A stretch of 64,000 nucleotides of DNA. It comes from Candidatus Omnitrophota bacterium (GTDB lineage: Bacteria; Omnitrophota; Gorgyraeia; Gygaellales; Profunditerraquicolaceae). This document shows, piece after piece, positions 2,098 to 53,844 of the stretch (its first letter is position 1; every line of letters starts with the position of its first letter). A program made the position numbers and the translations under genes. Location: contig JAQUOV010000002.1 of NCBI GenBank assembly GCA_028716965.1, positions 132,472 to 196,471 on the forward strand, written 5' to 3'. Under the pieces are notes generated by a model, which searched no databases, had not been told where the DNA came from, and was given only the letters and a program-made list of their open reading frames with translations.

Positions 2098-2239
2098 TCC
2101 AAAGATTATTAGATGTATATTTTTATTCTAATTTACCATAAATATAATAAGTTATATACTTTTTAACAGAAACATAACCCCTTTAATACTACGACGATAT
2201 TAAGTTCTTAAATATATATAAATAGAAGGAGATTATAGA

Positions 2240-3331: not shown

Positions 3332-3335
3332 AACA

Positions 3336-6061
<2,726 letters not shown>

Positions 6062-6063
6062 CT

Positions 6064-27617: not shown

Positions 27618-28550
27618 ATGTCTTGGGTAAAAAAGGATCTTTTAGGCCTGGAGTATTTGACTAAAGAAGAGATAGAGTTAATCCTGGATACCGCTGATTC
27701 ATTTAAAGAGGTCTCTACCAGAGAGATCAAGAAGGTTCCTGCCTTGCGCGGTAAGACCGCGGTAAATCTTTTTTATGAACCATCAACCAGGACAAGGGTT
27801 TCTTTTGAGGTGGCCGCAAAGAGATTATCCGCTGATGTTATTAATATCGCCACCGAGACATCCAGCGTACGCAAGGGGGAAACCTTGATTGATACGGGTA
27901 AGAATATCCAGGCGTTAAAGGCAGATATGATTATCATGAGGCATAATTGTTCCGGGGCGGCGAATATGCTTGCCCGCGCGTTGGATATCAGTGTGATAAA
28001 TGCCGGAGACGGCTGGCATGAGCATCCCACGCAGGCATTGCTTGATATGTTCACGCTTAAAGAAAAACTTGGGAGAATAGAAGGTTTGAATGTAACTATC
28101 GTAGGTGATATCGCGCATTCACGGGTTGCCCGTTCTAACATATGGGGGTTGACTAAGCTAGGGGCTAATGTTACGGCATGTGCTCCGGAGATGTTGCTTC
28201 CGGTTGCAATAGAGAAGATGGGGGTGAAAACCTCCAGCAATATTGATGAAGCCTTAAAAGAGGCTGATGCGGTAAATGTCTTAAGGATGCAGTTTGAACG
28301 CGATGAAGGCGCGGCTTTCCCGCAGCAACTGGATTATTTTAAGAGGTTCGGTATTACAAGAGAAAGATTAGCTAAAGCCAAGAAGGATATAGTTGTTATG
28401 CACCCCGGGCCGATTAACCGGGGAATTGAAATGTCCAGTGATGTGGCAGACGGAGCAAATTCTGTAATTTTAGATCAGGTGACCAACGGCATTGCCGTTA
28501 GGATGGCTGTTTTGTTCCTGGTAGCCCAGGCAAGGGAAGTGAAGGCATGA
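27618..28550 (+). CDS. pyrB: Aspartate carbamoyltransferase catalytic subunit
   Basis: 310 aa with the STRTR carbamoyl-phosphate binding motif (EPSTRTRVSFE) and the HPxQ-like HEHPTQALLD. Confidence 0.9.
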   Translation: MSWVKKDLLGLEYLTKEEIELILDTADSFKEVSTREIKKVPALRGKTAVNLFYEPSTRTRVSFEVAAKRLSADVINIATETSSVRKGETLIDTGKNIQALKADMIIMRHNCSGAANMLARALDISVINAGDGWHEHPTQALLDMFTLKEKLGRIEGLNVTIVGDIAHSRVARSNIWGLTKLGANVTACAPEMLLPVAIEKMGVKTSSNIDEALKEADAVNVLRMQFERDEGAAFPQQLDYFKRFGITRERLAKAKKDIVVMHPGPINRGIEMSSDVADGANSVILDQVTNGIAVRMAVLFLVAQAREVKA

Positions 28551-29821
28551 GTATATTGATTAAAAGCGGAAGAGTAATTGACCCGGCTAACAAAATTGAT
28601 GCTGTCTTGGATATTTTAATCGAAGAAGATAAGATATCCAAAGTTGCAAAAAATATTAAAGCGCAGGCAGACAGCATAATTGATGCAGCAGATAAAATTG
28701 TCGCTCCGGGCCTTATTGATATGCACGTGCACCTGCGCCAGCCGGGTAGAGAGGATAAAGAGACAGTGGCTACTGCCACTGCTGCAGCTACCAGGGGAGG
28801 AGTAACTACTGTTTTAGCCATGCCGAATACCAACCCGGCTATGGATTGTTTAGAGAACGCGGAGTTACTTAAAAAAATAATCGCTAAGGATGCCAGGATT
28901 AACGTGCTTATTTGCGGTACGATTACCAAGGGCCGGCTAGGTAAGGAATTAAGCGCGATCCTTGAGCTCAAGAAGAGCGGGGTTTGTGCCATATCCGATG
29001 ATGGTTGTTCGGTGGATAGCGATGAATTGATGTTTGCGGCGCTTAAAGAAGCAAAACAGGCAGGGGTTTTAACTATCTGTCATTCCGAAGACAAAAAAAT
29101 TTCAGGGAATGGGGTAATCAACCTGGGTTTTAATTCTACGCGCTTAGGGCTGCGGGGGATTTCCAATGAATCGGAATATAAGAGAGTGGCGCGCGATATT
29201 GAATTGGCAAAAAAATCCGGCGCATCCGTACACATTGCCCATGTTAGCTGCAGGCAGTCAGTAGAAATAATTGGCAAAGCCAGGAAAAACGGCGTAAAAT
29301 TGACTTGTGAAACCTCGCCACATTATTTTTCCTTAACAGAAGATGCTCTTTTGGGGTATGATACAAATATGAAGATGAATCCTCCTTTAAGAAGCTTGGA
29401 GGACCTTGTGGCAATTAAGCAAGGGTTAAAGGACGGAACGATTGATACAATCGCTTCAGACCATGCCCCGCATACGGAGAATGAAAAAGATATTGAGTTT
29501 GAACGCGCGGAGTTCGGGGTAGTAGGCCTTGAGACCGAATTGGCCGTGAGTATTACCGAGCTGATAAATTCAAAGATATTAGACTGGAGCAAACTTTTTG
29601 AGAAGTTTACTTCTAATCCTGCCAGGATCCTGGGTATAGAGAGGGGTTCTTTGAGCCAGGGAGGGCCGGCAGATGTAGCGATTGTTTCCGGAGGAAAAGA
29701 GTGGCAGGTTAAAAAAGATGAGTTGCTCTCTAAATCTAAAAACTCCGCCTTCCTTGGACGCACCTTAAAGGGGACAGTAGACTATACAATTTGCAACGGA
29801 AAGATAGTATATAAAAGGTAA
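28547..29821 (+). CDS. pyrC: Dihydroorotase
   Basis: 424 aa amidohydrolase with the metal-binding DMHVHLRQPG motif and the downstream Asp/His. It overlaps the pyrB stop by 4 nt. Confidence 0.9.
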   Translation: MSILIKSGRVIDPANKIDAVLDILIEEDKISKVAKNIKAQADSIIDAADKIVAPGLIDMHVHLRQPGREDKETVATATAAATRGGVTTVLAMPNTNPAMDCLENAELLKKIIAKDARINVLICGTITKGRLGKELSAILELKKSGVCAISDDGCSVDSDELMFAALKEAKQAGVLTICHSEDKKISGNGVINLGFNSTRLGLRGISNESEYKRVARDIELAKKSGASVHIAHVSCRQSVEIIGKARKNGVKLTCETSPHYFSLTEDALLGYDTNMKMNPPLRSLEDLVAIKQGLKDGTIDTIASDHAPHTENEKDIEFERAEFGVVGLETELAVSITELINSKILDWSKLFEKFTSNPARILGIERGSLSQGGPADVAIVSGGKEWQVKKDELLSKSKNSAFLGRTLKGTVDYTICNGKIVYKR

Positions 29822-29824
29822 AGA

Positions 29825-31063
29825 ATGGAATTTATCGCTGATTTTCATATTCATTCAAAATACTCCCGGGCAACCAGCCGTGATATGGATGTCAAGCACC
29901 TGGCAGAGTGGGCAAAGCTGAAAGGCATTACCCTTATGGGCACAGGGGATTTTACGCACCACCTCTGGCTGGAAGAATTAAAACATACATTAGAAGACTG
30001 CGCTAACGGTTTGTATAAATATGCGGGAGTGTATTTTATGCTCACGGCCGAAGTAAGCAGTATTTATTCCAAGAATGGGCGTACTTACCGCATCCATAAC
30101 TTAATCTTCAGCCCATCATTTAAAACCGTAGATAAAATAAACGAAAGATTAGGCAGGATCGGTAACCTGGCCAGTGACGGCCGGCCGATATTGGGCCTGG
30201 ATGCCGCGGAATTAGCGCGTATTGTCTTTGACATAGACGAAAACTGTATGATTGTACCCGGGCATATCTGGACGCCGTGGTTTTCCGTGTTTGGCTCTAT
30301 GTCTGGTTTTGACAGGATAGAAGACTGTTTTGAGTCGCAGACAGAAAAGATATTTGCGCTTGAGACCGGGCTTTCAAGCGATCCGACGATGAATTGGCGC
30401 CTGAGCGCTTTAGACAGGTTTACCTTGATCTCCAATAGCGATTCGCATTCTCCTTCCAGGATCGGCCGCGAAGCGAATGTCTTTAACTGCGAAATGGATT
30501 ACAAAACCATAAGGGAGGTTTTAAAAACCAAGGATAAAAAAAGATTTCTCTACACCATAGAATTTTTCCCGGAAGAAGGCAAATATCATTTTGACGGACA
30601 TAGGCTCTGTGGTATCCGCTGGTCTCCTGAAGAAACCAGGGCGCATAACGGAAAATGCCCTAAATGCGGTAAAAACGTAACCGTGGGGGTAGTTAACCGG
30701 GTGGAAAAATTGGCCGATCGCAAAGAAGGGTTTGTTCCGGATAACGCCATACCTTTTAAAAACCTTGTTTCGTTGGATCAAATAATCGCGGAGGCAAAAG
30801 GCGTGGCTAAAACCAGCATAGGAGTGGAAAGGGATTATCGTAGTTATTTGGCAAGCTTCGGCACGGAATTTGATATACTGATGCGTGCTTCCAGGGAGGA
30901 TTTGCTCAAAAAGCTTCCTCCTAAGGTTGTAGAAGGTGTTCTAAGGGCGCGGGCAGGAAAGGTAAATATAAAGCCCGGTTATGATGGGGAATATGGAGTA
31001 ATCTCAATATTTGATAAGGATTCCCCTGAAGATAAGCATGAACAGCAGCTTAAGTTATTTTAA
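29825..31063 (+). CDS. PHP-domain metal-dependent phosphoesterase with C4 zinc ribbon, endonuclease Q-like
   Basis: 412 aa. The N-terminal PHP motif is DFHIHSKYSRATS...GTGDFTHHLW, with internal SNSDSHSP...GREANVF. A GKYHFDGHRLC region is followed by a CPKCGK zinc ribbon and C-terminal GYDGEYGVISIF. This architecture matches the EndoQ family. Confidence 0.6.
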   Translation: MEFIADFHIHSKYSRATSRDMDVKHLAEWAKLKGITLMGTGDFTHHLWLEELKHTLEDCANGLYKYAGVYFMLTAEVSSIYSKNGRTYRIHNLIFSPSFKTVDKINERLGRIGNLASDGRPILGLDAAELARIVFDIDENCMIVPGHIWTPWFSVFGSMSGFDRIEDCFESQTEKIFALETGLSSDPTMNWRLSALDRFTLISNSDSHSPSRIGREANVFNCEMDYKTIREVLKTKDKKRFLYTIEFFPEEGKYHFDGHRLCGIRWSPEETRAHNGKCPKCGKNVTVGVVNRVEKLADRKEGFVPDNAIPFKNLVSLDQIIAEAKGVAKTSIGVERDYRSYLASFGTEFDILMRASREDLLKKLPPKVVEGVLRARAGKVNIKPGYDGEYGVISIFDKDSPEDKHEQQLKLF

Positions 31064-31095
31064 GGTGGCATTATTAAAAGACCTTTATGAATACC

Positions 31096-31167
31096 GCGCC
31101 TGTGGCCCAACGGATAAGGCACCAGCCTCCGGAGCTGGTGATGCAGGTTCAATTCCTGCCAGGCGCA
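31096..31167 (+). tRNA. tRNA-Arg (anticodon CCG)
   Basis: Acceptor GCGCCUG/CAGGCGC; anticodon stem CCAGC/GCUGG with loop CUCCGGA; T-arm GCAGGUUCAAUUCCUGC; discriminator A. Confidence 0.85.
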
Positions 31168-31180
31168 TAAATATGAGTGT

Positions 31181-31660
31181 ATGAAGAAAAATATAATATC
31201 AGTAATAGGTGGACATAATTCTACAGAGGAAGTGGAGCAGATTGCCATTAATTTAGGCAGAAAATTGGCAAAAGTGGTTGATGTTCTTGTGTCTGGAGGC
31301 CTAAGTGGTACAATGAAGGCAGTTTGCGCAGGTTTTAAAGCCAGCGGAGGCCTAACTATAGGAATTATCCCGAGTTACAATAAGAGAGATGCCAATGAAT
31401 TTGTAGATATTGTTATTCCTACGGGCCTTGGTTTAGCTAGAAATGTACTGGTAGTTAAAACTGCAGATGTAGTTGTGGCGCTTCCAGGTGAAGCAGGCAC
31501 TCTTTCTGAAATTGCTTATTGCCTGCAGTTCGGTATTCCCGTAATTAGTTTAGGGTCTTGGAATATTAAAGGAGTTATCAAAGTATCATCGGTTGATAAG
31601 GCAATTGATAAGATTAAAGAACTGCTGGGGAATACAGCTAAAAGAAAGGGCGTTTCTTAA
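31181..31660 (+). CDS. LOG/TIGR00725-family Rossmann-fold protein (lysine-decarboxylase-like)
   Basis: 159 aa with VIGGHNSTEE...VSGGLSGTMKAV...VALPGEAGTLSEI, the GGxGxMEA-like and PGGxGTxxE motifs of the LOG/SLOG family. Confidence 0.6.
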   Translation: MKKNIISVIGGHNSTEEVEQIAINLGRKLAKVVDVLVSGGLSGTMKAVCAGFKASGGLTIGIIPSYNKRDANEFVDIVIPTGLGLARNVLVVKTADVVVALPGEAGTLSEIAYCLQFGIPVISLGSWNIKGVIKVSSVDKAIDKIKELLGNTAKRKGVS

Positions 31661-31662
31661 GA

Positions 31663-33261
31663 ATGAGAAAAAGAGTGGTTATCTTAGGAGGAGGGCCGAA
31701 TAGAATAGGCCAGGGTATTGAGTTTGATTATTGCTGTTGTCATGCCGCCTACGCGCTTAAAGAGGAAGGGGTAGACAGCATTATGGTCAACTGTAACCCG
31801 GAGACAGTCTCTACCGATTATGATACCTCCGACAGGCTCTATTTTGAACCTCTCACTTTTGAAGATATCATGAATATTATTGAATTGGAGAAACCGATTG
31901 GGGTGATCGTGCAGTTTGGCGGCCAGACCCCGATTAACCTGGCAGTAGCCTTAAGAGGTGCAGGGGTGAACATCCTGGGGACCAGCTCTGAAAGTATTGA
32001 TATCGCAGAAGACCGCAAACGGTTCAAACAGATGATTGATAAGTTGGGACTTTTGCAGCCGAATAGCGGCACGGTATTTACATTTGACGAGGCAAAGAAA
32101 GTAGCCGCTAATATCGGATACCCCGTTTTAGTCAGGCCGTCATATGTGTTGGGCGGACGGGCTATGGAGATCGTCTATGACGCAGAAGTATTGGAGAGGT
32201 TTATTAAGGAGGCAGCCGAGGTATCCGGTGAGCACCCCATATTGATAGATAAATTCCTCGAGGATGCTATTGAAGTGGATGTTGATTTAATCGGAGACGG
32301 CCAAACTTTCGTCATCGGCGGGATCATGGAACATATTGAACAAGCGGGAGTGCACTCAGGAGATGCGGCAATGTCGCTTCCCAGTTACACTTTATCGCCG
32401 GATATTTTAAGAGATATAAGAGAAGCTACCTATGCTTTGGCCAAGGAGCTCAATATTGCCGGCTTAATGAATGTGCAGTATGCGGTTAAAGATGCCAGAG
32501 TTTATATATTGGAGGTTAACCCCCGCGCCTCACGCACCGTGCCCCTGGTTTCTAAAGTTATCGGGGTGCCTTTGGCAAAACTGGCAACCAAGGTTATGCT
32601 GGGCAGGAAGCTTAAAGATCTGGGTTTCACCGAAGAGGTAATCCCCCGGCATGTGGCAGTTAAAGAATCGGTTTTTCCTTTTAACCGTTTCCCGGGTGTA
32701 GATGTAATGCTTGGTCCGGAGATGAAATCTACCGGAGAGGTGATGGGTATTGACAAGGATTTTTCCAGCGCTTATATAAAGAGCCAGATTGCCGCCGGGC
32801 AGAAGATCCCTAAGAAAGGGAACGTATTTATCTCCGTGCATGACCGGGACAAAAGGGATGTAATTTCTATTGCCAAGAAGTTAAAGGACCTGGGATTTAA
32901 GATCTTTGCTTCAAGCGGCACGGCATCTGTTTTGAAAAAGAATAATATTCCGGCTAAAGTGCTGCCGAAAATCACCGAGGGCAGGCCGAATATACTGGAC
33001 TTAATGAAAGACGGTAAGATTCAAATGGTGATTAATACACCTTCGGGCAGGATCCCCAGGCAGGATGAGGTAAAAATCCGTTCACAGGTGATTCTTTATA
33101 ACATACCTTATACTACTACCATCTTTGGAGCACAGGCAACGGTAAACGGGATCGAGATGTTCATGAAAAAAGACTTAGGCGTAAAATCATTGCAGGAGTA
33201 CCATAAGATTAAGGGCAGGAAAGTCAAACAGGATAAAACGTGCCGGAACTTCCCGAAGTAG
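31663..33261 (+). CDS. carB: Carbamoyl-phosphate synthase large chain, C-terminal half as a stand-alone ORF
   Basis: 532 aa beginning RVVILGGGPNRIGQGIEFDYCCCHAAYALKEEGVDSIMVNCNPETVSTDYDTSDRLYFEPLT, the start of the second ATP-grasp repeat. It ends with the MGS-like domain (KGNVFISVHDRDKRD...). No N-terminal half or carA is present in the window. Confidence 0.85.
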   Translation: MRKRVVILGGGPNRIGQGIEFDYCCCHAAYALKEEGVDSIMVNCNPETVSTDYDTSDRLYFEPLTFEDIMNIIELEKPIGVIVQFGGQTPINLAVALRGAGVNILGTSSESIDIAEDRKRFKQMIDKLGLLQPNSGTVFTFDEAKKVAANIGYPVLVRPSYVLGGRAMEIVYDAEVLERFIKEAAEVSGEHPILIDKFLEDAIEVDVDLIGDGQTFVIGGIMEHIEQAGVHSGDAAMSLPSYTLSPDILRDIREATYALAKELNIAGLMNVQYAVKDARVYILEVNPRASRTVPLVSKVIGVPLAKLATKVMLGRKLKDLGFTEEVIPRHVAVKESVFPFNRFPGVDVMLGPEMKSTGEVMGIDKDFSSAYIKSQIAAGQKIPKKGNVFISVHDRDKRDVISIAKKLKDLGFKIFASSGTASVLKKNNIPAKVLPKITEGRPNILDLMKDGKIQMVINTPSGRIPRQDEVKIRSQVILYNIPYTTTIFGAQATVNGIEMFMKKDLGVKSLQEYHKIKGRKVKQDKTCRNFPK

Positions 33262-34058
33262 AGACAATAAAAAGAGATTTACAAAAGGTAATCTTGGGCA
33301 GGAAAATCACCAAGGTTTGTATATATAACCCGGCGGTAATACGCCAGCCTCTGCCTTCGGCATTTAAAAAACACCTTAAAGGGTTGGTTGTAAAGACAAT
33401 CCTGCGCCGAGGGAAGCTTTTAATTTTAGAGTTATCTAACGGATCAGCCTTGACTGTGCATTTAAGGATGACAGGACAGTTAGTGCTCGGCCAAAAGCCG
33501 GGCAATCCAGGAGGTTCCAAGGCCAGCCGGGTAACTTTTCATCTGTCCGGAGGCAGGATTTTAGATTTTAATGATCAGCGTTTGTTCGGAGAGTTGCGTT
33601 TGGTTGATGACTGGAGGAAGATAAAATTCATCCAGGGGCTTGGTCCTGAACCATTTGATCTAACTTATAGTGATTTCAAGGATATGTTTTCTAAGAAGAA
33701 AACCAAGATCAAGCCTTTACTGATGGATCAGTCGTTTATCGCCGGCATCGGCAATCTTTATGCCGCGGAGATTTTGTTCTGCGCCAGAGTTGATCCGCGC
33801 AGGCAAGCGCGAAGTTTGACAGAGGGAGAAAAACAAGCTATATATAGGGAAACCAAAAAGGTGTTAAAGAGTGCGATTGCGCATGGAGGTTCTTCGATTG
33901 ATGATTACGTGCGCCTTTCCGGCAAGCCGGGAGATTATCGTAAGTTCCACCGTGTTTACGGCAGGCAGGGCAAGCCCTGTTTTGTCTGTAAGGGCTTGAT
34001 TAAAAAGATTAACCAGGGAGGAAGAGGCACTTATTTTTGCCCAAAGTGCCAGAAGTAG
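33240..34058 (+). CDS. mutM: Formamidopyrimidine-DNA glycosylase
   Basis: 272 aa beginning MPELPEVETIKRDL (catalytic Pro2/Glu3), with H2TH and a C-terminal zinc finger CFVCKGLIKKINQGGRGTYFCPKCQK. It overlaps the carB end by 22 nt. Confidence 0.9.
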   Translation: MPELPEVETIKRDLQKVILGRKITKVCIYNPAVIRQPLPSAFKKHLKGLVVKTILRRGKLLILELSNGSALTVHLRMTGQLVLGQKPGNPGGSKASRVTFHLSGGRILDFNDQRLFGELRLVDDWRKIKFIQGLGPEPFDLTYSDFKDMFSKKKTKIKPLLMDQSFIAGIGNLYAAEILFCARVDPRRQARSLTEGEKQAIYRETKKVLKSAIAHGGSSIDDYVRLSGKPGDYRKFHRVYGRQGKPCFVCKGLIKKINQGGRGTYFCPKCQK

Positions 34059-34105
34059 TATTCCGTCAAACGAAAACCCCTTGTTTCATAAAATGACCTT
34101 CTCAA

Positions 34106-34813
34106 ATGAAAAAACGCCTTAAAATTAACGGAATTATCATGGGTTGCGCGGCAATTGTCGTCGTGTTTTTCCCAAAGTTTTTCTTTCGTAATAATATTAA
34201 CGGCGGCATGGAAGAATATATAGAGACCTTAGGGTTTGCTCTTATCCTGCTGGGGCAAATAATCCGCGTTTCTGCCCGCGGGTATAAAGCGGAACACTCC
34301 CGTGAAAGCCAGGCATTAATACAAGGCGGGCCATACCAGGTAGTGCGTAATCCGATGTACCTGGGGATATTTCTGATCGGCTTAGGCGTAGTGTTGGCGG
34401 TGTTCAAGTGGTGGGCGGCGGTAATCTTTATCATAGTTTTTATTATCCGTTATATCCTGCTTATATATAAGGAGGAAAAGAAACTCTTGGCCGTGTTTCC
34501 CGAATCATACAAAAAATATTGCCAGAAGATGCCGCGTATTCTGCCATCGTTATCTAGAATGACAAGTTTAGATATCAGCGAGTATTTACCTATAAAGCTA
34601 ATTTGGTTTAAAAAAGAAATCGGTTCAATTTTGACGCTTCTTTTACTGGTTTTATTGGTGGAATCCTGGGAGGGTATTTCCAGGCAGGGGCTTATGGCAT
34701 ATCTTAACCAGGCCGTATGGCTATTGTTGACCTTTATTTTATTTATCATTTTTGTAATTTTACTCAGCATCCGGACATATAAAAAAGATGGAAACAGCGT
34801 TGTTAAAGGTTAG
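34106..34813 (+). CDS. Isoprenylcysteine carboxyl methyltransferase (ICMT/PEMT) family membrane protein
   Basis: 235 aa, polytopic, with LIQGGPYQVVRNPMYLGIFL...EEKKLLAVFPESYKKYCQKMPR, the ICMT/phospholipid methyltransferase signature. Confidence 0.6.
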   Translation: MKKRLKINGIIMGCAAIVVVFFPKFFFRNNINGGMEEYIETLGFALILLGQIIRVSARGYKAEHSRESQALIQGGPYQVVRNPMYLGIFLIGLGVVLAVFKWWAAVIFIIVFIIRYILLIYKEEKKLLAVFPESYKKYCQKMPRILPSLSRMTSLDISEYLPIKLIWFKKEIGSILTLLLLVLLVESWEGISRQGLMAYLNQAVWLLLTFILFIIFVILLSIRTYKKDGNSVVKG

Positions 34814-35573
34814 GGTAATCTCAAATAAAAAACTTAAATGCAATTATTGGCATTTAGAGTTTGAGTGCGGTATGATTGCCAGGAATGCCAGGCCCGGGCA
34901 GTTTGTAGAGGTTAAGGTTAATCATCTTATGGATCCATTATTAAGGAGGCCTCTTAGTATCCATGGCGTAAGCGGAACAAGGGTTAGGATTATTTATGAA
35001 GTTATCGGCAAGGGCACACAGATTTTATCCGAGCAAGGCCCAGGTGTTTTTCTGGATGTTATCGGACCGCTGGGCAAAGGTTTTGAATATGGTCAGATAA
35101 CTAATAAAGCAGATAAGCAAAAAAATATTTTGGTCGCAGGAGGCATGGGGGTAGCCCCGTTGGTTTTCCTTGCGCAGAGAATGAAAGGCAGCAGGCCGCT
35201 GGTTCTCATTGGAGCCAAGACAAAAGAACATATTCTTTGTGAAAAAGAATTTAAGAGTTTGGGGTGCAAAATAAAGATCGCCACTGACGACGGCAGCCGC
35301 GGATTCAAAGGAAGGGTTACAGATCTTTTAAAGGATTTGCTGTCAACTGTCAACTGTCAACTGTCAACTATATATGCCTGCGGCCCGCAGCCAATGCTAA
35401 AAGCTGTTGCCCGGATTTCTTGTGAAAATAACCTTGCCAGCCAACTTTCGCTGGAAAGGCATATGGCGTGCGGATTCGGCGCTTGTTTAGGATGTGTTGT
35501 GTCTACTAAATCCGGATATAAAAGAGTTTGTAAGGATGGCCCGGTTTTTGCGGGCGAGGAGCTGACTTGGTAA
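34788..35573 (+). CDS. pyrK: Dihydroorotate dehydrogenase electron transfer subunit
   Basis: 261 aa with an FAD/NAD-binding ferredoxin-reductase fold and a C-terminal 2Fe-2S motif CGFGACLGCVV. It sits upstream of pyrD. Confidence 0.85.
   Translation: METALLKVRVISNKKLKCNYWHLEFECGMIARNARPGQFVEVKVNHLMDPLLRRPLSIHGVSGTRVRIIYEVIGKGTQILSEQGPGVFLDVIGPLGKGFEYGQITNKADKQKNILVAGGMGVAPLVFLAQRMKGSRPLVLIGAKTKEHILCEKEFKSLGCKIKIATDDGSRGFKGRVTDLLKDLLSTVNCQLSTIYACGPQPMLKAVARISCENNLASQLSLERHMACGFGACLGCVVSTKSGYKRVCKDGPVFAGEELTW
35340..35367 (+). repeat. Heptanucleotide tandem repeat (CTGTCAA)x4 inside pyrK
   Basis: Four exact tandem copies of ctgtcaa, read directly from the sequence. They encode LSTVNCQLST. Confidence 0.9.
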
Positions 35574-36502
35574 AGAAGCCCGGACCAGATTTAAGTGTAA
35601 AGATAGGAAGTCTGCATTTAAAGAACCCTGTAATGGTTGCTTCCGGGACTTTCGGTTACGCCGAGGAGTTCAACGGCCTCCTGGATTTAAAAAAGCTGGG
35701 TGCTATTGTTACTAAAACCATCACCATTAAGCCCCGGCAGGGCAATCTCCCTCCGCGGACCTGTGAAACTCCTTCTGGAATGCTTAATTCCATCGGCCTG
35801 GAAAACCCCGGCATAGATAAATTTATTGGAGACAAGCTTCCCTTTTTGAAAAAGCTGGGTATCCCGATCATTATTAGTATTGCCTCCGAAGATGATCCCG
35901 GGGAATTTTGCATTCTGGCGGAGAGGCTGGATAAAATAAGCGCGATCTCCGCAATCGAACTGAATATCTCCTGCCCTAATCTGCAGAAGAATAAGTTGAT
36001 CTCTCAAGATGCCAGGGAAACTTTTGCTTTAATCAGCGCACTGCGCAAACTTACCCGAAAATGCTTAATCACTAAACTTTCTCCCAATGTAACTTCCATC
36101 TCGGATATTGCTTTGGCCGCGCAGGAGGCAGGAAGCGATGCCGTGGCTTTAATCAACACACTTGCCGGTATGAGCATAGATGTACATAAGCGCACGCCAA
36201 AACTCGGATCCTGGTCTGGAGGCTTAAGCGGGCCGGCAATCAGGCCGGTAGCGGTGAAGATGGTTTGGGATGTTTATAACAAGATTAAGATTCCCATTAT
36301 CGGCATGGGTGGTATAATGGATACAGAAAGCGCCCTGGAGTTTTTTCTCGCCGGCGCTACTGCTATCAGTGTGGGAACCGCAAACTTCATTAACCCGGGA
36401 ATAAGCCTTGATATTATCTCCGGGTTAGAAAAATATATGGCAGATGGCGGCATCCAGAGTTTGAGTAATATTATCGGAAAGTTAAAAGAATGCAAAGATT
36501 AA
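35567..36502 (+). CDS. pyrD: Dihydroorotate dehydrogenase catalytic subunit (class 1B)
   Basis: 311 aa with NPVMVASGTFGY...NSIGLENPG...NISCPN...GGI....ALEF. Confidence 0.9.
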   Translation: MVKKPGPDLSVKIGSLHLKNPVMVASGTFGYAEEFNGLLDLKKLGAIVTKTITIKPRQGNLPPRTCETPSGMLNSIGLENPGIDKFIGDKLPFLKKLGIPIIISIASEDDPGEFCILAERLDKISAISAIELNISCPNLQKNKLISQDARETFALISALRKLTRKCLITKLSPNVTSISDIALAAQEAGSDAVALINTLAGMSIDVHKRTPKLGSWSGGLSGPAIRPVAVKMVWDVYNKIKIPIIGMGGIMDTESALEFFLAGATAISVGTANFINPGISLDIISGLEKYMADGGIQSLSNIIGKLKECKD

Positions 36503-37263
36503 ATAGTCCTGCCCAGCTAAAAGCCTGCGGCACTCACCCTGTTTTACCGGGAGCGGCAGGATTTCGCCAGAGAAAAGCTTGTGCTGCTCAACTCGTACTT
36601 GCCCTGGATGTGGATACAATAGGGGAGGCTAAAAGGCTTCTGGATAGCCTATACCCAAAGATAAGAGTCTTTAAAGTGGGCAGCCACCTTTTTACTGCCT
36701 ATGGCCCCAAGGTCATTGAAATGTTGCACAAAAAAGGTGCAGAGGTTTTTTTGGATCTCAAGTACTTTGATATTCCTAATACTGTGGCCAAAGCGGTGGC
36801 TTCGGCAGTGCGGCAAAAAGTGAAAATGCTTACTTTGCATATTTCTGGAGGTAAGGAGATGCTGGAGGCTGCTGTTGCTTCGGCAAGGCAGCAGGCAAAA
36901 GATGCTAAAGTAACCAGACCTCTGTTAATAGGGGTTACGATTTTAACCAGTAAAGAAGCAAAAACAGAAGAGGTGTTGGCACTTGCAAAAACAGGGATTG
37001 ATTGTGGATTAGACGGCGTAGTTTGCTCAGTCAGTGAAGCTGCTGTTTTGCGGAGAAAGATAAAAAATAATTTTATTATTGTGACCCCGGGCATCAGATT
37101 AAATGATTGTGTTCAGGATGACCAAAAAAGGATAGCTAGTGTAAGCCAGGCAGTAAAAGCAGGGAGTGATTTTTTAGTGATCGGTCGACCGATTTTAAAG
37201 GCAGATAATCCTCTGGCGAAAACGGAGGAACTTTTAGGAGATTTATCCCGTCTTCGCAGATAA
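36490..37263 (+). CDS. pyrF: Orotidine 5'-phosphate decarboxylase
   Basis: 257 aa with LVLALDV...FKVGSHLF...FLDLKYFDIPNTV. The annotated N-terminal ~30 aa may be an extension; the true start is uncertain. Confidence 0.85.
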   Translation: MQRLNSPAQLKACGTHPVLPGAAGFRQRKACAAQLVLALDVDTIGEAKRLLDSLYPKIRVFKVGSHLFTAYGPKVIEMLHKKGAEVFLDLKYFDIPNTVAKAVASAVRQKVKMLTLHISGGKEMLEAAVASARQQAKDAKVTRPLLIGVTILTSKEAKTEEVLALAKTGIDCGLDGVVCSVSEAAVLRRKIKNNFIIVTPGIRLNDCVQDDQKRIASVSQAVKAGSDFLVIGRPILKADNPLAKTEELLGDLSRLRR

Positions 37264-44475: not shown

Positions 44476-44552
44476 GGGCGATTAGCTCAGTTGGTTAGAG
44501 CGTCTGACTTACATTCAGAAGGCCAGGGGTTCAACTCCTCTATCGCCCACCA
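44476..44552 (+). tRNA. tRNA-Val (anticodon UAC)
   Basis: Acceptor GGGCGAU/AUCGCCC; D-arm GCUCAGUUGGUUAGAGC; anticodon stem UCUGA/UCAGA with loop CUUACAU; T-arm AGGGGUUCAACUCCUCU; encoded CCA. Confidence 0.85.
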
Positions 44553-44627
44553 TTAAAGATCAAAAATAAATAGTGGATTTTGGTTTAAAAGAAAGTATAA
44601 TAAGTTCCTAAAATTTAAATATTCGCG

Positions 44628-44706
44628 GGGGTCGTGGCCTAGTCTGGTTTAAGGCGCCTCCCTGTCACGGAGGAAATCGCGAGTTCAAATCTCGTCGGCC
44701 CCGCCA
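44628..44706 (+). tRNA. tRNA-Asp (anticodon GUC)
   Basis: Acceptor GGGGUCG/CGGCCCC; anticodon stem CCUCC/GGAGG with loop CUGUCAC; T-arm GCGAGUUCAAAUCUCGU; discriminator G; encoded CCA. Confidence 0.8.
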
Positions 44707-44710
44707 GTTA

Positions 44711-44745
44711 AAAAGCCGCAAATCAATTTGCGGCTTTTTGCTTTT
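44711..44745 (+). terminator. Rho-independent terminator after the tRNA-Val/tRNA-Asp pair
   Basis: AAAAGCCGCAAAT-caa-ATTTGCGGCTTTT perfect 13-bp stem followed by TGCTTTT. Confidence 0.8.
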
Positions 44746-46365: not shown

Positions 46366-46388
46366 GGCCTATCCTTTAGGAGGAGAAG

Positions 46389-46709
46389 ATGACAACTATT
46401 GATGATTTCAGGAAGTTGGATTTAAGAATAGCAGAAATTAAAGAGGTTAATGAGCATCCTAACGCCGATAAATTGTTAATTTTGACTTTGGATTTGGGGG
46501 ATAGGCAAAAACAGGTGGTTGCCGGCATAAGGAGTTTTTATTCCAAGGAAGAGCTTTTGGGTAAACAGGTGGTTTTGGTGGATAATCTTGAACCGGCAAC
46601 CTTACGCGGCGTAGAAAGCCAGGGGATGATCTTGGCCGGCTCCGATGAAAATACACTGGCTATTGTTAGTCCCGAGAGAAAACTTAAGATAGGAAGCATT
46701 GTTAAATGA
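46389..46709 (+). CDS. tRNA-binding domain protein (CsaA/Trbp111/EMAP-II-like)
   Basis: 106 aa with FRKLDLRIAEIKEVNEHPNADKLLILTLDLGD...VVAGIRSFYSKEELLGKQVVLVDNLEPATLRGVESQGMILAGS, the OB-fold tRNA-binding signature. Confidence 0.8.
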   Translation: MTTIDDFRKLDLRIAEIKEVNEHPNADKLLILTLDLGDRQKQVVAGIRSFYSKEELLGKQVVLVDNLEPATLRGVESQGMILAGSDENTLAIVSPERKLKIGSIVK

Positions 46710-47215
46710 TTAAACAGTTTGTCCCGCAGGAGTTTTGTCTTAAGTGCAGGGGTTGCTGCCGCTTCAGGGAAGCTGACTCCGTATGGAGCCCATGTCTTAT
46801 GGACGAAGAGATACAGTTACTTTTAGACAAGAAAGATATCCCGGCTGCCTCTATCTCCATTGAACGGCGCATACAGCTTATAGCTAATCCCAATGGCGTA
46901 GATTTTATCTGCCCGTTTTTAAGCAGTTTAAGTAATAAATGCGCTATTTACGATATCCGTCCGTTTGAATGCCAGCTTTACCCTTTTTTGATTAACCTGC
47001 GTAAGGATAAAATACTCCTGACCGTAGACTTAAATTGCCCTTATGTTTGTGAAAAAATAAACAGCCCGGAAATCAAAGATTATATTTCTTATCTTGCCGG
47101 TTACCTGAATTCTCCGGAACAGCTAAAGATGCTAAAGGATAACCCGCGACTTATCCAGGCTTATGAAGAGGTAAGAGAGGTGGCCGAGCTAATATTCCCC
47201 CATGAAATTAAATAA
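46706..47215 (+). CDS. YkgJ-family (UPF0153) Cys-cluster Fe-S/Zn protein
   Basis: 169 aa with the CLKCRGCCRF motif (CxxCxxCC) and further conserved Cys residues. It overlaps the upstream gene by 4 nt. Confidence 0.6.
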   Translation: MIKQFVPQEFCLKCRGCCRFREADSVWSPCLMDEEIQLLLDKKDIPAASISIERRIQLIANPNGVDFICPFLSSLSNKCAIYDIRPFECQLYPFLINLRKDKILLTVDLNCPYVCEKINSPEIKDYISYLAGYLNSPEQLKMLKDNPRLIQAYEEVREVAELIFPHEIK

Positions 47216-48098
47216 GTTAACATTAAAAGACAGGAGGGTATTTAATAAGCACCTTGCTTTTTCCAGGCATGAGCTTTCGGCATTTTCTTTTGCCAACATC
47301 TACATTTGGCGGGCCATCTTTGATATCCAATGGTCTTTGTTTGAAGGCATCCTCTGCGTATTTTTTCGCGATAAGACAGGCTGTTTTATGTATCTGCCGC
47401 CGTTAGAAAAAGAGCGGCACCCGCTGGTTATAAAAAAGGCATTTGCGGTAATGGATAGCATTAATAAGAACAGGGATATCTCGCGTATTGAAAATATCGG
47501 ACAAGAAGATATAGAATATTACCGGGCCTTAGGTTATTTGTGCCATCAGAAATATCCCGATTACCTTTGTTCAAGGAGCGACTTGGCTTATCTTAAAGGG
47601 AATAAATTTAAATCCCAGCGCGCCGCGTATAATTATTTTGTCAAACATTATGATTTCAAAGTGTTAAAGCTTAAGGCAAAGGATAATGCCAGTTGTTCAA
47701 TTCTATTTAATGAGTGGATAGAAGAGCGTAAAACGCACTGCCGCCAGGACCTTTATTGCGGCATGCTTGAAGATAACCGCAAAGTAATCAGAGAAGCCTT
47801 ATTTAATTATAGGCAGCTGGACCTGGAAGGCATAGTGGTGATGGTCGGTAAAAAGATAAAAGGTTTTACCTTTGGTTATAAATTAAATAATAATACCTTT
47901 TGCATACTTTATGAGGTTACCGATCTCTCTATTAAAGGCCTTGCCCAGTTTATTTTCCGCAGGTTCAGCACGGAATTGAAAGATTATGATTATATCAATA
48001 TCATGGATGATTCAGGGCTGGATAATTTACGGAAGGTGAAACTTTCCTATAAACCGCGGCGGTTGATCCCCGCTTATATTGCAACCAGAGATGCTTAA
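47202..48098 (+). CDS. DUF2156 protein (MprF C-terminal-like, putative aminoacyl-tRNA-dependent transferase fold)
   Basis: 298 aa. The N-terminal SAFSFANIYIWR pattern and C-terminal DDSGLDNLRKVKLSYKP (GL..FK..F.P-like) resemble the LPG-synthase C-terminal / FemAB-like family. Assignment is from remembered family patterns only. Confidence 0.5.
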   Translation: MKLNKLTLKDRRVFNKHLAFSRHELSAFSFANIYIWRAIFDIQWSLFEGILCVFFRDKTGCFMYLPPLEKERHPLVIKKAFAVMDSINKNRDISRIENIGQEDIEYYRALGYLCHQKYPDYLCSRSDLAYLKGNKFKSQRAAYNYFVKHYDFKVLKLKAKDNASCSILFNEWIEERKTHCRQDLYCGMLEDNRKVIREALFNYRQLDLEGIVVMVGKKIKGFTFGYKLNNNTFCILYEVTDLSIKGLAQFIFRRFSTELKDYDYINIMDDSGLDNLRKVKLSYKPRRLIPAYIATRDA

Positions 48099-48912
48099 AC
48101 ATATTGATGAGGTAGAGTTTACTATATTTGATACGGAGACTACCGGACTTAACCCGGCTTCCGGGGATCGTATAGTTGAGCTGGCGGGCTTAAGAGTTAA
48201 AGGCAGGGAGAGAATTGCTAAATTCGATATGTTAGCTAACCCGGGCAGAGAAATTTCCCCGGAAGCTTTTGCGGTCAATAAGATCACGCCGGAGATGCTT
48301 AAAGATGCCCCAGCCATAGAGATAGCAATACCCAGGTTTCTTGATTTTTCCCGGGGCAGCTTTCTTTGTTCCTACAATGTTGAATTTGATTTGAGTTTCT
48401 TGAACAGTGAATTAAGGTTTAGCGGTTTACCGGCCCTGGATGGCCAGGTTTTCTTTGATATATTGACTATGGCAAAACGCCTTATGCCGAACCAGCAACG
48501 TTATGCCCTTTGGTTTATAGCTGAGAAATTAGGGATTAAGACCAGGCAAGAACACCGTGCTTTTTCCGATGTGGAGATGGCCTGGGAGGTTTTTAGCAGG
48601 CTAAAAGATACCTGCCTGGAAAAAGGGATTACAAGGTTTGCCGATTTCTCAAGCCTATTTTCTTTTAATCCTAAATATTTGGAAAGTCCCCATTTTTTGA
48701 AGATATCCCAAGTTGAGAAAGCGATCAATTTAAAAGCGCGCCTGAAGATAAGATACCTGTCCGTAAAGGATGCGACTATCTCTTCAAGAGAGGTGATTCC
48801 TGCTGAAATCCGTCAGGAGGGGAAAAATAAATATTTAGTCGGGTTTTGTTGCCTAAAACAGGAAGAGCGTGTTTTTAAAATTGATAATATACTGGATCTG
48901 GAGATAGTTTAG
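48079..48912 (+). CDS. DEDDh 3'-5' exonuclease (DnaQ/RNase T-like) fused to a C-terminal WYL domain
   Basis: Exo motifs FTIFDTETTGL (Exo I), FLCSYNVEFDLSFL (Exo II) and HRAFSDVEMAWEVF (Exo III, H-x4-D). The C-terminal ~100 aa ends in KYLVGFCCLKQEERVFKIDNILDLEIV, matching the WYL-domain pattern (xYL...R.F.ldRI). Confidence 0.65.
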   Translation: MQPEMLKHIDEVEFTIFDTETTGLNPASGDRIVELAGLRVKGRERIAKFDMLANPGREISPEAFAVNKITPEMLKDAPAIEIAIPRFLDFSRGSFLCSYNVEFDLSFLNSELRFSGLPALDGQVFFDILTMAKRLMPNQQRYALWFIAEKLGIKTRQEHRAFSDVEMAWEVFSRLKDTCLEKGITRFADFSSLFSFNPKYLESPHFLKISQVEKAINLKARLKIRYLSVKDATISSREVIPAEIRQEGKNKYLVGFCCLKQEERVFKIDNILDLEIV

Positions 48913-48980: not shown

Positions 48981-50912
48981 GTGTTAAAAAAACATAATGA
49001 CAGTTTAGGTGCGGAACGCAGAAAATATATCCGCCTGGATACCGTCTTACCTGTACAGTTCCGTTTGGAAAGCCTGGACAGCAAACAATCATTGTCACCA
49101 TGGATCCAGGGTTTTACTAACAATATTGGACACGGAGGCATATGTCTTTCGGTAAATGACCTTGCGCCTGAGTTTATAAATTTAATCCGCGAGAAAAAGG
49201 TAAAGCTTGCCATAGAGATCGATATGCCTTTAGGCGGCGATTCTGTATGTGCATCGGTTTCTTTGGCCTGGGTCAAAGAAGGCGGGGGTTTGTCCAAACG
49301 TTATTTAGTGGGTTTAGATTATGAAAAGATCAACCCGGGGCAAAACAGCAGGCTTATACGTTATGCCTGGGCAAGAAAGCTATTTTTACCATTCGTAATC
49401 TTGTCTGTTTTCATTTTGAGTTTGTCTTTGGGGATCGGCGCTTATTTAAACATACAACTGACCCATAAGAATAAGATGCTCGTTGAAGAGCTGGTAGGGG
49501 TTTTGCAAGAATCCAAGTCGGCTAAAGAGCAGTTAAGGCAGATAGCCCAGGAAAAAGCAGCTTTGCAAAGCAGGATTAGTTCCTTGAGTTCACAAATTAA
49601 GTCTATTGCCGAGAAGAAAAGCGTACAAGCTCCGGCTTCCATCGATAATGCAAATGAGTTAAACGGCATAATCGTAGGGCTTGTCCAGGAAAGGGACCTT
49701 CTGCAGGCCAAACTGGCTTCTTTGCAATTAAATGAAAAGACGGCCCAGGCAGAATCGTTGCGCCTTGAGAACAAAAAACTGGTTTTGGAAAAGGCGAACC
49801 TGGATAAAATGTACCAGTGGTTTAAGGTGCGCCAGAACCCGCGCACGGGCCTGGTAATGAGCTTCGAAGGAGATAAGGATATAGATAGCTGGGCCTTTCT
49901 TTACGACCAGGCTTTGCTGATTCAGGTTTATATAAAATTCTCGGATTTTCCACGCGCAAGGAAGATCCTCGATTTCTTTGCTGATGATGCAAAACGGCAA
50001 GACGGATGGTTCCTTAATGCCTACTATGTCAATGACGGCTCTCCTGCAGAATACGTACTGCACTCCGGGCCGAATATCTGGCTGGGTATTTCTATCCTTC
50101 AGTATACCCGCGTCACCGGCGATAAGAAATATTTGAGAATAGCCGAAGAGATCGCCAGTAATATAATCCAGCTGCAGAATTCAGACCCCGAGAACGGTAT
50201 ACGTGGAGGACCGCAGATGAGCTGGTATTCTACGGAGCACCATTTGGATGCTTATGCTTTTTTCAAAATGTTGGCGAGTATAACCAGTACCAGTAAGTAT
50301 GAACAAGCAGGGGAAAAAACTTTGAATTGGCTGGTAAGGCATACTTATGACCGTCAGGACCTGCCGATTAAGCGCGGCAAGGGTGATTCTACTATTGCCA
50401 CGGATACTTACGCATGGTCTATCGCTGCCATTGGCCCGGCTAAGCTTAAGTCTTTAGGTATGGACCCGGATAAAATTATGGAGTTTGTTGAAGAAAATTG
50501 TAGCGTAGAGGTTAACTTCAACCGGCCGGGGGGGCAGGTAGTTAAAATCCGTGGTTTTGATTTTGCCCCGCAACGCAACCTCTCCCGGGGCGGAGTAGTC
50601 TCAAGCGAATGGACAGCCCAGATGGTTGTGTCTTTTAAGATTATGGCAGATTATTACCGCAAGAATGGACAAGCGGATAAGGCCGCTGTTTATCAGGATA
50701 AAGCGGATAACTATCTGGCTCAGCTGGGAAAGACGATTATCTCCAGTCCTTCTCCTTCGGGCCAGGGTGAAGGCTGCCTGCCTTATGCCACGCAGGATTA
50801 TGTGGATACTGGCCATGGCTGGATGACCCCAAAAGGCAAACATACCGGCTCGGTATCGGGGACTGCTTATACTATTTTTGCCTATTATGGCGTCAATCCT
50901 TTGGAATCTTAA
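48981..50912 (+). CDS. PilZ-domain membrane protein with long coiled-coil and large C-terminal domain (possibly (alpha/alpha)6 glycosidase-like)
   Basis: 643 aa. The N-terminal PilZ-like motifs are RRKYIR (RxxxR) and NIGHGGICLSV ((D/N)xSxxG-like). A TM helix LFLPFVILSVFILSLSLGIGAYL and a coiled coil follow. The C-terminal ~350-aa Trp/Tyr-rich domain is of uncertain fold. Confidence 0.5.
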   Translation: MLKKHNDSLGAERRKYIRLDTVLPVQFRLESLDSKQSLSPWIQGFTNNIGHGGICLSVNDLAPEFINLIREKKVKLAIEIDMPLGGDSVCASVSLAWVKEGGGLSKRYLVGLDYEKINPGQNSRLIRYAWARKLFLPFVILSVFILSLSLGIGAYLNIQLTHKNKMLVEELVGVLQESKSAKEQLRQIAQEKAALQSRISSLSSQIKSIAEKKSVQAPASIDNANELNGIIVGLVQERDLLQAKLASLQLNEKTAQAESLRLENKKLVLEKANLDKMYQWFKVRQNPRTGLVMSFEGDKDIDSWAFLYDQALLIQVYIKFSDFPRARKILDFFADDAKRQDGWFLNAYYVNDGSPAEYVLHSGPNIWLGISILQYTRVTGDKKYLRIAEEIASNIIQLQNSDPENGIRGGPQMSWYSTEHHLDAYAFFKMLASITSTSKYEQAGEKTLNWLVRHTYDRQDLPIKRGKGDSTIATDTYAWSIAAIGPAKLKSLGMDPDKIMEFVEENCSVEVNFNRPGGQVVKIRGFDFAPQRNLSRGGVVSSEWTAQMVVSFKIMADYYRKNGQADKAAVYQDKADNYLAQLGKTIISSPSPSGQGEGCLPYATQDYVDTGHGWMTPKGKHTGSVSGTAYTIFAYYGVNPLES

Positions 50913-52854: not shown

Positions 52855-53844
52855 ATGGAAATGTTAAAGATATCTAAAAGGCCGCGGCTTAAAAAGCCAT
52901 ATCTCATTGTTGCCTGGCCGGGCATGGGGGAGGTTGCGTTTAAGGCTGCGGCTTATTTAATCGAAGAGTTAAAGGCTCAGGAGTTCGCCTATCTCCAGCC
53001 GGAAGAGTTTTTTTATCTGACCGGCAGCGTTATACAGTCTGGAATATTGGAAACCCCTCTCCTGCCGCAGGGAAAATTCTATTATTGGAGGAATCCCGCG
53101 GCAAAACGCGCAGGGACGGGGAAAAACGACTTGATTATTTTTCTAAGTAATGCCCAGCCTGACCTATCTAAGGCGGATAATTACGCAAAGATAATTATTG
53201 ATTTGGCTAAGGGTTTAGGCGTGGAAATGGTCGTTAGTTTTGCTTCTATGCCCCAGGCAACCGATCATACCCAAGATTCACGCGTCTGGTTTGCGGCGAC
53301 GGATAAGAAAACAAAAGAAAGTCTGGATAAATATAACTTTATTCCGTTGGAAGACGGACAGATTAGCGGGATGAACGGTTTGTTCCTGGGTATGGCCAAG
53401 AAATCGGGGTTGAAAGGATTCTGCCTGCTCGGCGATATACCCCTTTATACAATTCAGATTGAAAATCCTAAGGCTTCAGCCGCAGTGCTCCTTGGGTTGG
53501 GGAAGATTATAAATCTGCAGATAAATGTACAGCCATTAAAGGAGCAGGCGCAGACGATGGAAAATGAAATTAACAAGCTTTTGGATTATCTGAAGCTCGG
53601 TAGCTCCGGACAGGCCGCTCCTATAGGCGAGGAGGAGGTGGAGCTGATCAAGAAGACCTTAAGTCAGTTTACTAAATTACCGGTTTCGGTAAAAGAAAAA
53701 ATCGAGAAGCTTTTTGAAGAAAGCCGCCTTGACATTACCCGGGCCAGTGAACTAAAAGTGGAACTGGACAAATGGAATGTTTATAAGGAATATGAGGATA
53801 GGTTCCTGGATTTATTCAGGAAGAGCACGGATAAAGGCAATTAA
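52855..53844 (+). CDS. PAC2-family (proteasome-assembly-chaperone-like) protein with C-terminal coiled coil
   Basis: 329 aa. N-terminal KKPYLIVAWPGMGEVAFKAAAYLIEEL and ...SGMNGLFLGMAKKSGLKGFCLLGDIP resemble the PAC2/DUF75 family. Assignment is from pattern memory. Confidence 0.45.
   Translation: MEMLKISKRPRLKKPYLIVAWPGMGEVAFKAAAYLIEELKAQEFAYLQPEEFFYLTGSVIQSGILETPLLPQGKFYYWRNPAAKRAGTGKNDLIIFLSNAQPDLSKADNYAKIIIDLAKGLGVEMVVSFASMPQATDHTQDSRVWFAATDKKTKESLDKYNFIPLEDGQISGMNGLFLGMAKKSGLKGFCLLGDIPLYTIQIENPKASAAVLLGLGKIINLQINVQPLKEQAQTMENEINKLLDYLKLGSSGQAAPIGEEEVELIKKTLSQFTKLPVSVKEKIEKLFEESRLDITRASELKVELDKWNVYKEYEDRFLDLFRKSTDKGN

Follow-up and report, generated by a model that had tools for sequence, protein, structure and literature searches.

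The DNA examined here, referred to as the window, is a stretch of 64,000 nucleotides (nt) from Candidatus Omnitrophota (assembly GCA_028716965.1, contig JAQUOV010000002.1, positions 132,472–196,471 of the forward strand), an uncultured phylum whose members are ultra-small and may depend on hosts. The window carries a cluster of four tightly packed genes encoding a tRNA-binding OB-fold protein (gene 1), a YkgJ-type cysteine-cluster protein with a CxxCxxCC (hereafter Cx) domain (gene 2), a DUF2156 tandem-GNAT protein (gene 3) and a DEDDh exonuclease with a C-terminal WYL domain (gene 4) (Table 1). The four open reading frames (ORFs) and all the domain identities given in the original prediction for this locus were confirmed, with every Pfam domain, DUF2156 and WYL among them, scoring above its gathering threshold. 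Of the overlaps that it reported, those between genes 1 and 2 (4 nt, ATGA) and between genes 2 and 3 (14 nt) stand; the third is 8 nt rather than 20 nt, because nearly all orthologues of gene 4 are 273 amino acids (aa) long and the downstream ATG is consequently the likely start. Within the cluster, a strong Shine–Dalgarno sequence precedes gene 1 alone, which fits coupled translation of genes 2–4. Scans for promoters and terminators were uninformative: site counts lay near the shuffled expectation, and no convincing terminator was seen inside or just past the cluster. No transmembrane segment was found in any of the four proteins.

Table 1 Features of the four-gene cluster and its surroundings, in window coordinates
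Feature	Position	Strand	Details
Shine–Dalgarno sequence AGGAGG	46378–46383	+	5 nt upstream of the gene 1 start; read from the sequence
Gene 1, tRNA-binding OB-fold protein	46389–46709	+	106 aa
Gene 2, YkgJ/CxxCxxCC protein	46706–47215	+	169 aa
Gene 3, DUF2156 tandem-GNAT protein	47202–48098	+	298 aa
Gene 4, DEDDh exonuclease–WYL protein	48091–48912	+	273 aa from ATG 48091 (likely start); listed ORF 48079–48912, TTG start, 277 aa
DEDDh exonuclease domain of gene 4	48124–48594	+	Pfam RNase_T PF00929, E = 2e-32, residues 16–172 of the 277-aa ORF
WYL domain of gene 4	48706–48906	+	Pfam PF13280, E = 2e-10, 41.2 bits against a cut-off of 21.8, residues 210–276
dnaA, dnaN, gyrB, 278-aa unannotated ORF (6064–6900), gyrA	760–9316		
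Pyrimidine genes (PRTase, pyrB, pyrC, carB-like, pyrK, pyrD, pyrF)	27078–37263		Interleaved and overlapping with unrelated genes
fpg	33240–34058		Unrelated gene inside the pyrimidine stretch
PEMT/ICMT-type methyltransferase	34106–34813		Unrelated gene inside the pyrimidine stretch
643-aa protein	48981–50912		N-terminal PilZ match, weak and under the Pfam cut-off; strongly hydrophobic segment around residue 134; long uncharacterised C-terminal region

The clearest result concerns the two middle genes. Searching 1.84 billion cluster representatives exhaustively with HMMER, using the DUF2156 protein as query, returned 3431 relatives. Many of the closest (33–48% identity) measure 440–545 aa and carry DUF2156 C-terminally; in nine of the ten tested, the N terminus carries the Pfam CxxCxxCC domain. 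A hidden Markov model (HMM) of the Cx domain, built from the Omnitrophota Cx orthologues and run on 149 representatives (at 50% identity) related to the DUF2156 protein, identified 58 Cx–DUF2156 fusions among these distant representatives, with the Cx domain full-length in most (full-length matches at E = 1e-27 to 1e-48). None of the 149 is fused to tRNA_bind or to the exonuclease. One fused orthologue (P0404) was modelled as a single confident fold (pLDDT 91.9, pTM 0.78). Because the two genes are split in some lineages and fused in others, there is strong evidence that the cysteine-cluster protein and the DUF2156 protein are parts of what we predict to be a single enzyme. Candidatus Omnitrophota accounts for every named homologue of genes 3 and 4, the named fusion proteins again belong to Omnitrophota without exception, and the module was not found outside the phylum, every named match among the close and fused relatives being Omnitrophota. 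Neither the Cx–DUF2156 architecture nor its pairing with a free-standing tRNA-binding protein is described in the literature searched.

Gene 2 matches the CxxCxxCC family PF03692 (E = 2e-7, 32 bits against a gathering score of 23), and its eight cysteines (C11, C14, C17, C18, C69, C79, C89 and C111) are invariant in 51 free-standing and fused sequences. It is probably the metal-binding or iron–sulfur-binding half of the core enzyme, with an iron–sulfur cluster or zinc as the expected ligand. A nearby precedent is the flagellin lysine methyltransferase FliB. Its CX4CX3CC motif, which the FliB authors compare to the CX2CX2CC motif of PF03692, holds a [4Fe-4S] cluster that is oxygen-sensitive and required for catalysis.

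Gene 3 is the predicted catalytic half. Enzymes of the DUF2156 type take aminoacyl-tRNA away from translation and use it in the modification of lipids, sterols and natural products. The original prediction saw in this protein the MprF C-terminal-like fold that uses aminoacyl-tRNA. The family assignment held (LPG_synthase_C/DUF2156 PF09924, E = 1e-29, 103.7 bits against a cut-off of 27.5, residues 23–294 of 298), whereas the likeness to MprF needs revision. An MprF-type aminoacyl-phosphatidylglycerol synthase was rejected, as the protein has no N-terminal membrane (flippase) domain and no sequence-level match to MprF structures; the DUF2156 family profile reached none of the MprF synthase structures in the PDB, even at E ≤ 10. 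The product is soluble and basic (isoelectric point 9.4), its most hydrophobic 19-residue stretch scoring 1.25. Its sole PDB sequence match is 2HQY (BT_3689 of Bacteroides thetaiotaomicron; single-sequence E = 3e-29, family-profile E = 9e-38), and as a soluble tandem-GNAT protein of around 300 aa that closely resembles 2HQY in sequence and structure it belongs to that branch. The residues S243-I-K-G-L-A248 fit the GNAT pyrophosphate-loop pattern xxxGxA, with K245, G246, L247 and A248 invariant in the Omnitrophota family, a pattern that is no more than suggestive of acetyl-CoA binding. Aminoacyl-tRNA is only one of two candidate donors: the donor could be aminoacyl-tRNA, to which the fold neighbours and the adjacent tRNA-binding gene point, or acyl-CoA, to which the closest homologue points.

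That adjacent gene, gene 1, is a free-standing protein of the Trbp111 or methionyl-tRNA synthetase (MetRS) C-terminal (beta-subunit) type and a predicted tRNA binder. It matches tRNA_bind PF01588 (E = 1e-30, 105.9 bits against a cut-off of 27) and passes the NCBIfam model TIGR00399 for the MetRS C-terminal domain (metG_C_term; 130.7 bits against 116.65). The description as CsaA/Trbp111-like therefore survives in its second half only: the models for the CsaA export chaperone, TIGR02222 and PRK10089.1-5, fell below their cut-offs (54 against 119.65 bits and 48.5 against 171 bits, respectively), as did the YgjH-type models in NCBIfam. Gene 1 is 61–93% identical across 80 species, in most of which it shares the 4-nt ATGA overlap with gene 2.

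Gene 4 was likened in the original prediction to RNase T, an analogy that did not hold. Its catalytic residues D14, E16, D100, H155 and D160 (Exo I–III motifs D-x-E, D and H-x4-D) are invariant in 55 orthologues, and it passes the dnaQ family domain model TIGR00573 (92.7 against a cut-off of 71.5). A true DNA polymerase III epsilon subunit or PolC was rejected, the scores being far below the equivalog cut-offs (TIGR01406, 94.9 against 222.7; PRK00448, 129 against 873). The best PDB matches are the PolC exonuclease domain 2P1J (E = 4e-24), PolC and polymerase III epsilon, and the wider set of PDB relatives (PolC exonuclease, epsilon, DnaQ, the DinG exonuclease, ExoX, Cas2–DEDDh and MrfB) acts on DNA throughout. 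An RNase T identity was also rejected: no RNase T model is among the 25 best NCBIfam matches, and no RNase T or Orn chain was found in the PDB at E ≤ 0.01. On these similarities, gene 4 most likely acts on DNA 3′ ends and not on tRNA, and the earlier statement that three of the four products are tRNA-related was overstated.

The WYL tail of gene 4 had been read as a ligand sensor of the kind found in defence regulators. Its nearest relatives are instead the WYL regions of the Pif1 helicases 8BNV and 8BNS, which match residues 184–271 (E = 3e-7), and WYL in Pif1 is described as an accessory module that binds single-stranded DNA (bioRxiv 10.1101/163188). A WYL regulator of the HTH–WYL–WCX layout was rejected, as gene 4 has no helix–turn–helix (HTH) and the exonuclease is its only other Pfam domain. 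The tail is also dispensable: around 19 of the 76 exonuclease orthologues are only about 189–230 aa long and lack it (loci L010–L016, L019, L021, L022, L024–L026, L029, L030, L032, L041, L043 and L075), and it is absent from the exonucleases at L085, L087 and the P0415 contig as well. A considerable share of the phylum has thus lost WYL or never acquired it. Judged by homology, it is most likely an optional clamp on single-stranded nucleic acid. A fusion of a DnaQ-like exonuclease to WYL is not described in the literature searched.

To follow the cluster across the phylum, we scanned one genome per GTDB species, which yielded 153 relatives of the DUF2156 protein, and fetched the best 80; these best 80 of the 153 are all Omnitrophota, some of the records being labelled 'Planctomycetales'. 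Mapped by tblastn with the proteins of the window, tRNA_bind, Cx, DUF2156 and the exonuclease follow one another in this order on a single strand in virtually all of them. Co-occurrence of the four families, on which the original prediction turned, thus holds in around 80 Omnitrophota species and extends to several deeply divergent lineages, and its remark that the combination matches no named pathway agrees with the literature searched. The junctions are tight, with a median of −4 nt for tRNA_bind/Cx (within 50 nt in 71 of 78), −14 nt for Cx/DUF2156 (78 of 81) and −8 nt for DUF2156/exonuclease (66 of 76). The flanks vary more: around half of the loci lack the 504-aa outer-membrane-type gene on the upstream side. 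Downstream, the 643-aa PilZ-domain gene is conserved in most Omnitrophota loci; in more distant ones 2.4–7 kb separate it from the exonuclease, filled by a hypF-like gene and hypD, or by pabB and pabC, together with a TPR/DUF3857/transglutaminase gene. The operon is vertically inherited and phylum-wide in Omnitrophota.

The divergent loci bear on whether genes 1 and 4 belong with the core. The gene order is tRNA_bind, the fusion and an exonuclease without WYL at L085/L086 (P0424); GT2, tRNA_bind, fusion, exonuclease without WYL, pabB and pabC at L087/L088 (P0404); an RF-1-like gene, tRNA_bind, fusion, exonuclease–WYL, pabB and pabC at L172 (P0422); and YfhO, tRNA_bind, fusion, exonuclease, pabB and pabC on the P0415 contig. 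Elsewhere the set is reduced. L083 (P0291) has rpsT on the opposite strand followed by fusion, exonuclease–WYL, pabB and pabC, without tRNA_bind, and L090 (P0299) has tRNA_bind, Cx, DUF2156 and pabBC, without the exonuclease. The partners are absent at L089 (P0277; CBS-domain gene, DUF2156, pabB), at L171 (P0416; a GGDEF gene on the opposite strand, fusion, sensor kinase) and on the short contig L082 (P0252). Where tRNA_bind lies directly upstream of the core in these lineages (L085, L087, L090, L172 and the P0415 contig), its own upstream neighbours differ and include an outer-membrane protein, GT2, YfhO, the RF-1-like protein and unknowns. That tRNA_bind stays joined to the core while the gene upstream of it changes argues for selection on the pairing. 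A link between gene 1 and the Cx–DUF2156 core is accordingly likely but unproven; that of gene 4 is weaker, and it is the least firmly attached partner.

Two of these loci hold further genes of interest, each in one lineage only. At L172 (3319–4004), a 121-aa RF-1-domain protein that resembles an ArfB-type peptidyl-tRNA hydrolase abuts tRNA_bind on its upstream side, a further neighbour with a link to translation and tRNA. At L089 (4535–5008), a 157-aa CBS-pair protein overlaps the start of DUF2156 in the position usually taken by Cx, and it could be an alternative ligand-binding partner.

With moderate confidence, we read the cluster as a housekeeping operon that combines a probably tRNA-linked acyl- or aminoacyl-transferase module with a loosely attached DNA exonuclease, rather than as a mobile or defence element. 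Its core is one predicted cytosolic enzyme made of the eight-cysteine YkgJ-type domain and the tandem-GNAT DUF2156 transferase of the BT_3689/2HQY type. The Trbp111/MetRS-beta-like protein, probably translated from the same message by coupling and in stoichiometric amounts, would hold tRNA or aminoacyl-tRNA for the basic transferase. The enzyme might then move an aminoacyl group from aminoacyl-tRNA to an acceptor, as MprF and Fem enzymes do, or it might use acyl-CoA to acylate tRNA or its amino acid; the cysteine cluster would serve as a structural or redox metal site. Gene 4 would be co-transcribed and act as a DNA 3′–5′ exonuclease, its role in the same process being unproven.

Several observations count against so close an association, and most of them would be expected if only genes 2 and 3 cooperate, gene 1 being a general cofactor for tRNA (such as a MetRS C-terminal domain that has become detached) and gene 4 a DNA repair or proofreading enzyme, with all four kept together by ancestry and overlapping frames. 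We regard this account as possible, if somewhat unlikely. The overlaps, taken in the original prediction to imply a unit, do not do so by themselves: counted from the ORF table, 15 of the 42 same-strand junctions of the window overlap, among them the unrelated pairs carB-like/fpg (22 nt) and HhH-GPD glycosylase/M20 peptidase (11 nt). Because overlapping junctions are the norm and include unrelated pairs, an overlap is weak evidence for a functional unit in this genome; the pyrimidine genes, which interleave and overlap with fpg and a methyltransferase gene, likewise indicate that overlap does not track function. Overlapping junctions also leave no safe breakpoints and would freeze gene order mechanically. 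Synteny across the phylum reaches well past the four genes (pyrD–pyrF upstream; pabB–pabC, the TPR/DUF3857 gene and the PilZ-domain gene downstream), and because the whole region is syntenic, part of the conservation of order may reflect inheritance and not selection.

Losses point the same way. tRNA_bind is missing beside the core at L083, L089 and L066, the exonuclease is missing beside it in at least five lineages (L048, L066, L078, L089 and L090), and in the two truly non-syntenic contexts (L171 and L082) the fusion has neither of them as a neighbour. The match of gene 1 to TIGR00399 and the DNA-type exonuclease also fit this account. It sits poorly, however, with the way in which tRNA_bind keeps to the core despite a different upstream neighbour in almost every divergent lineage, and a tRNA-binding protein beside a member of a fold class in which the characterised enzymes use aminoacyl-tRNA would be an unlikely coincidence. 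The evidence for all four genes as one system is mixed.

The chemistry of gene 3 raises a second difficulty. According to PMC10700544, acetyl-CoA sits in the active site of 2HQY, and HPB8_1270, the DUF2156 protein of Helicobacter pylori, plays a part in acetylating lysines of RNase J; gene 3 is only around 22% identical to BT_3689. Because the closest solved homologue reportedly binds acetyl-CoA and the Helicobacter homologue is tied to protein acetylation, the substrate of gene 3 may have nothing to do with tRNA. In a single metagenome scan, the Bacteroides BT_3689 loci have no Cx, tRNA_bind or exonuclease neighbour. One of them (L094, 3579–7936) carries pta on the opposite strand, lrgA, lrgB, DUF2156 (BT_3689) and an Acetyltransf_9 GNAT gene, a neighbourhood that is linked to acetyl metabolism and in line with the reported acetyl-CoA ligand.

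A bolder proposal, which we consider unlikely, is that Cx–DUF2156 represents a new class of iron–sulfur-dependent tRNA-directed acyltransferase, either Elp3/TmcA-like with acyl-CoA or dependent on aminoacyl-tRNA with a Trbp111-like subunit, and that the DEDDh–WYL exonuclease is a true fourth subunit acting on the same nucleic-acid substrate.

Related to it, and to our minds quite doubtful, is a tRNA maturation or modification operon in which an iron–sulfur, acetyl-CoA-dependent GNAT enzyme modifies a tRNA base or the aminoacyl moiety by Elp3/TmcA logic, the Trbp111-like protein presents the tRNA, the DEDDh enzyme trims 3′ ends as RNase T does and WYL grips a single-stranded trailer. Elp3 itself unites iron–sulfur, GNAT, acetyl-CoA and tRNA, and WYL1 binds single-stranded RNA, both in keeping with the scheme. 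The acetyl-CoA reported in 2HQY (PMC10700544), the catalytic [4Fe-4S] cluster of FliB's PF03692-like CX4CX3CC motif and the predicted tRNA-binding partner encoded immediately upstream all suit such a scheme, and exonucleolytic 3′ trimming is possible given that two of the five tRNA genes of the window encode CCA. The other three (tRNA-Glu, tRNA-Arg and tRNA-Gln) do not, and this mixed status does not discriminate between roles for the exonuclease. The scheme is at odds with the lack of RNase T/Orn similarity at E ≤ 0.01 and with the DNA-acting PDB relatives of the exonuclease; no radical S-adenosylmethionine (SAM) motif or SAM-binding domain was detected with Pfam, and the exonuclease and its WYL tail are dispensable in many lineages. 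Finally, a defence or stress system, also raised in the original prediction, with WYL as the ligand sensor that governs the nuclease, is very improbable: PADLOC matches gene 4 alone, by generic DEDDh and WYL models and the candidate-system model PDC-S48, whereas genes 1–3 have no PADLOC match, no HTH or effector architecture is present, WYL is often absent, no mobile-element genes flank the cluster, and the locus is origin-proximal and vertically inherited with synteny conserved in around 80 species.

The wider window places the preferred housekeeping operon in context. Because the window opens with dnaA–dnaN–gyrB–gyrA, has positive GC skew almost throughout and carries virtually all its genes on the + strand, it starts at or close to the replication origin and follows the leading strand, on which the cluster lies around 46 kb from the origin and dnaA. 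Around the cluster are pyrimidine-biosynthesis genes, a V-type ATPase operon, tRNA genes and DNA glycosylases. The genes for tRNA-Val and tRNA-Asp (44476–44740) are the two that encode the 3′ CCA, and a strong terminator with a 14-bp stem (44709–44740) follows them. A PAC2-family bacterial protein (52855–53844, E = 6.5e-39) belongs to a Pfam family named for a proteasome assembly chaperone and is unexpected in this context. Nearer the origin, a single giant ORF of 4873 aa spans 12148–26769; giant genes in predatory bacteria are the topic of a preprint that mentions Omnitrophota often (bioRxiv 10.1101/2023.11.21.568195).

Each domain family found here was already known, and it is their combination that appears to be new. 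An eight-cysteine domain of the YkgJ type linked to a tandem-GNAT DUF2156 is an apparently undescribed architecture, which is widespread in the phylum and usually stands beside a tRNA-binding protein. The proteins are expressible candidates for asking whether tRNA or acyl-CoA is the donor in the BT_3689 branch, what the widespread uncharacterised PF03692 cysteine-cluster domain does and how an exonuclease benefits from a WYL tail. More generally, in compact syntenic genomes, overlap and conserved order alone are no proof of a functional unit.

Compared with known systems, gene 1 shares the PF01588 OB fold with Trbp111, the MetRS C-terminal domain and CsaA, and at 106 aa it passes TIGR00399; unlike them, it is free-standing and encoded beside an acyltransferase rather than a synthetase. 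Gene 4 has all five DEDDh residues of the PolC/DnaQ exonucleases, and its WYL domain is most like the accessory WYL of DdPif1 and SsPif1. For the Cx domain, the nearest biochemical lead is, by analogy, FliB, which likewise has eight conserved cysteines and a cysteine-rich motif at its N terminus; the motifs are spaced differently (CX4CX3CC in FliB, CX2CX2CC in PF03692), FliB is not joined to a GNAT domain, and the likeness is one of motif. The transferase half shares its fold with aminoacyl-tRNA-dependent enzymes, namely the MprF synthase domain, FemA/FemX, Sbb17 and the aminoacyl-tRNA synthetase–DUF2156 fusion ErdS. Set against these, the Omnitrophota enzyme has no membrane or flippase domain, is partnered by a bare tRNA-binding OB fold and not by a synthetase, and carries an eight-cysteine domain that is attached to none of them. 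Published work offers a precedent in DUF2156 enzymes that are fused physically to modules handling tRNA, ErdS being an example (PMC8913301).

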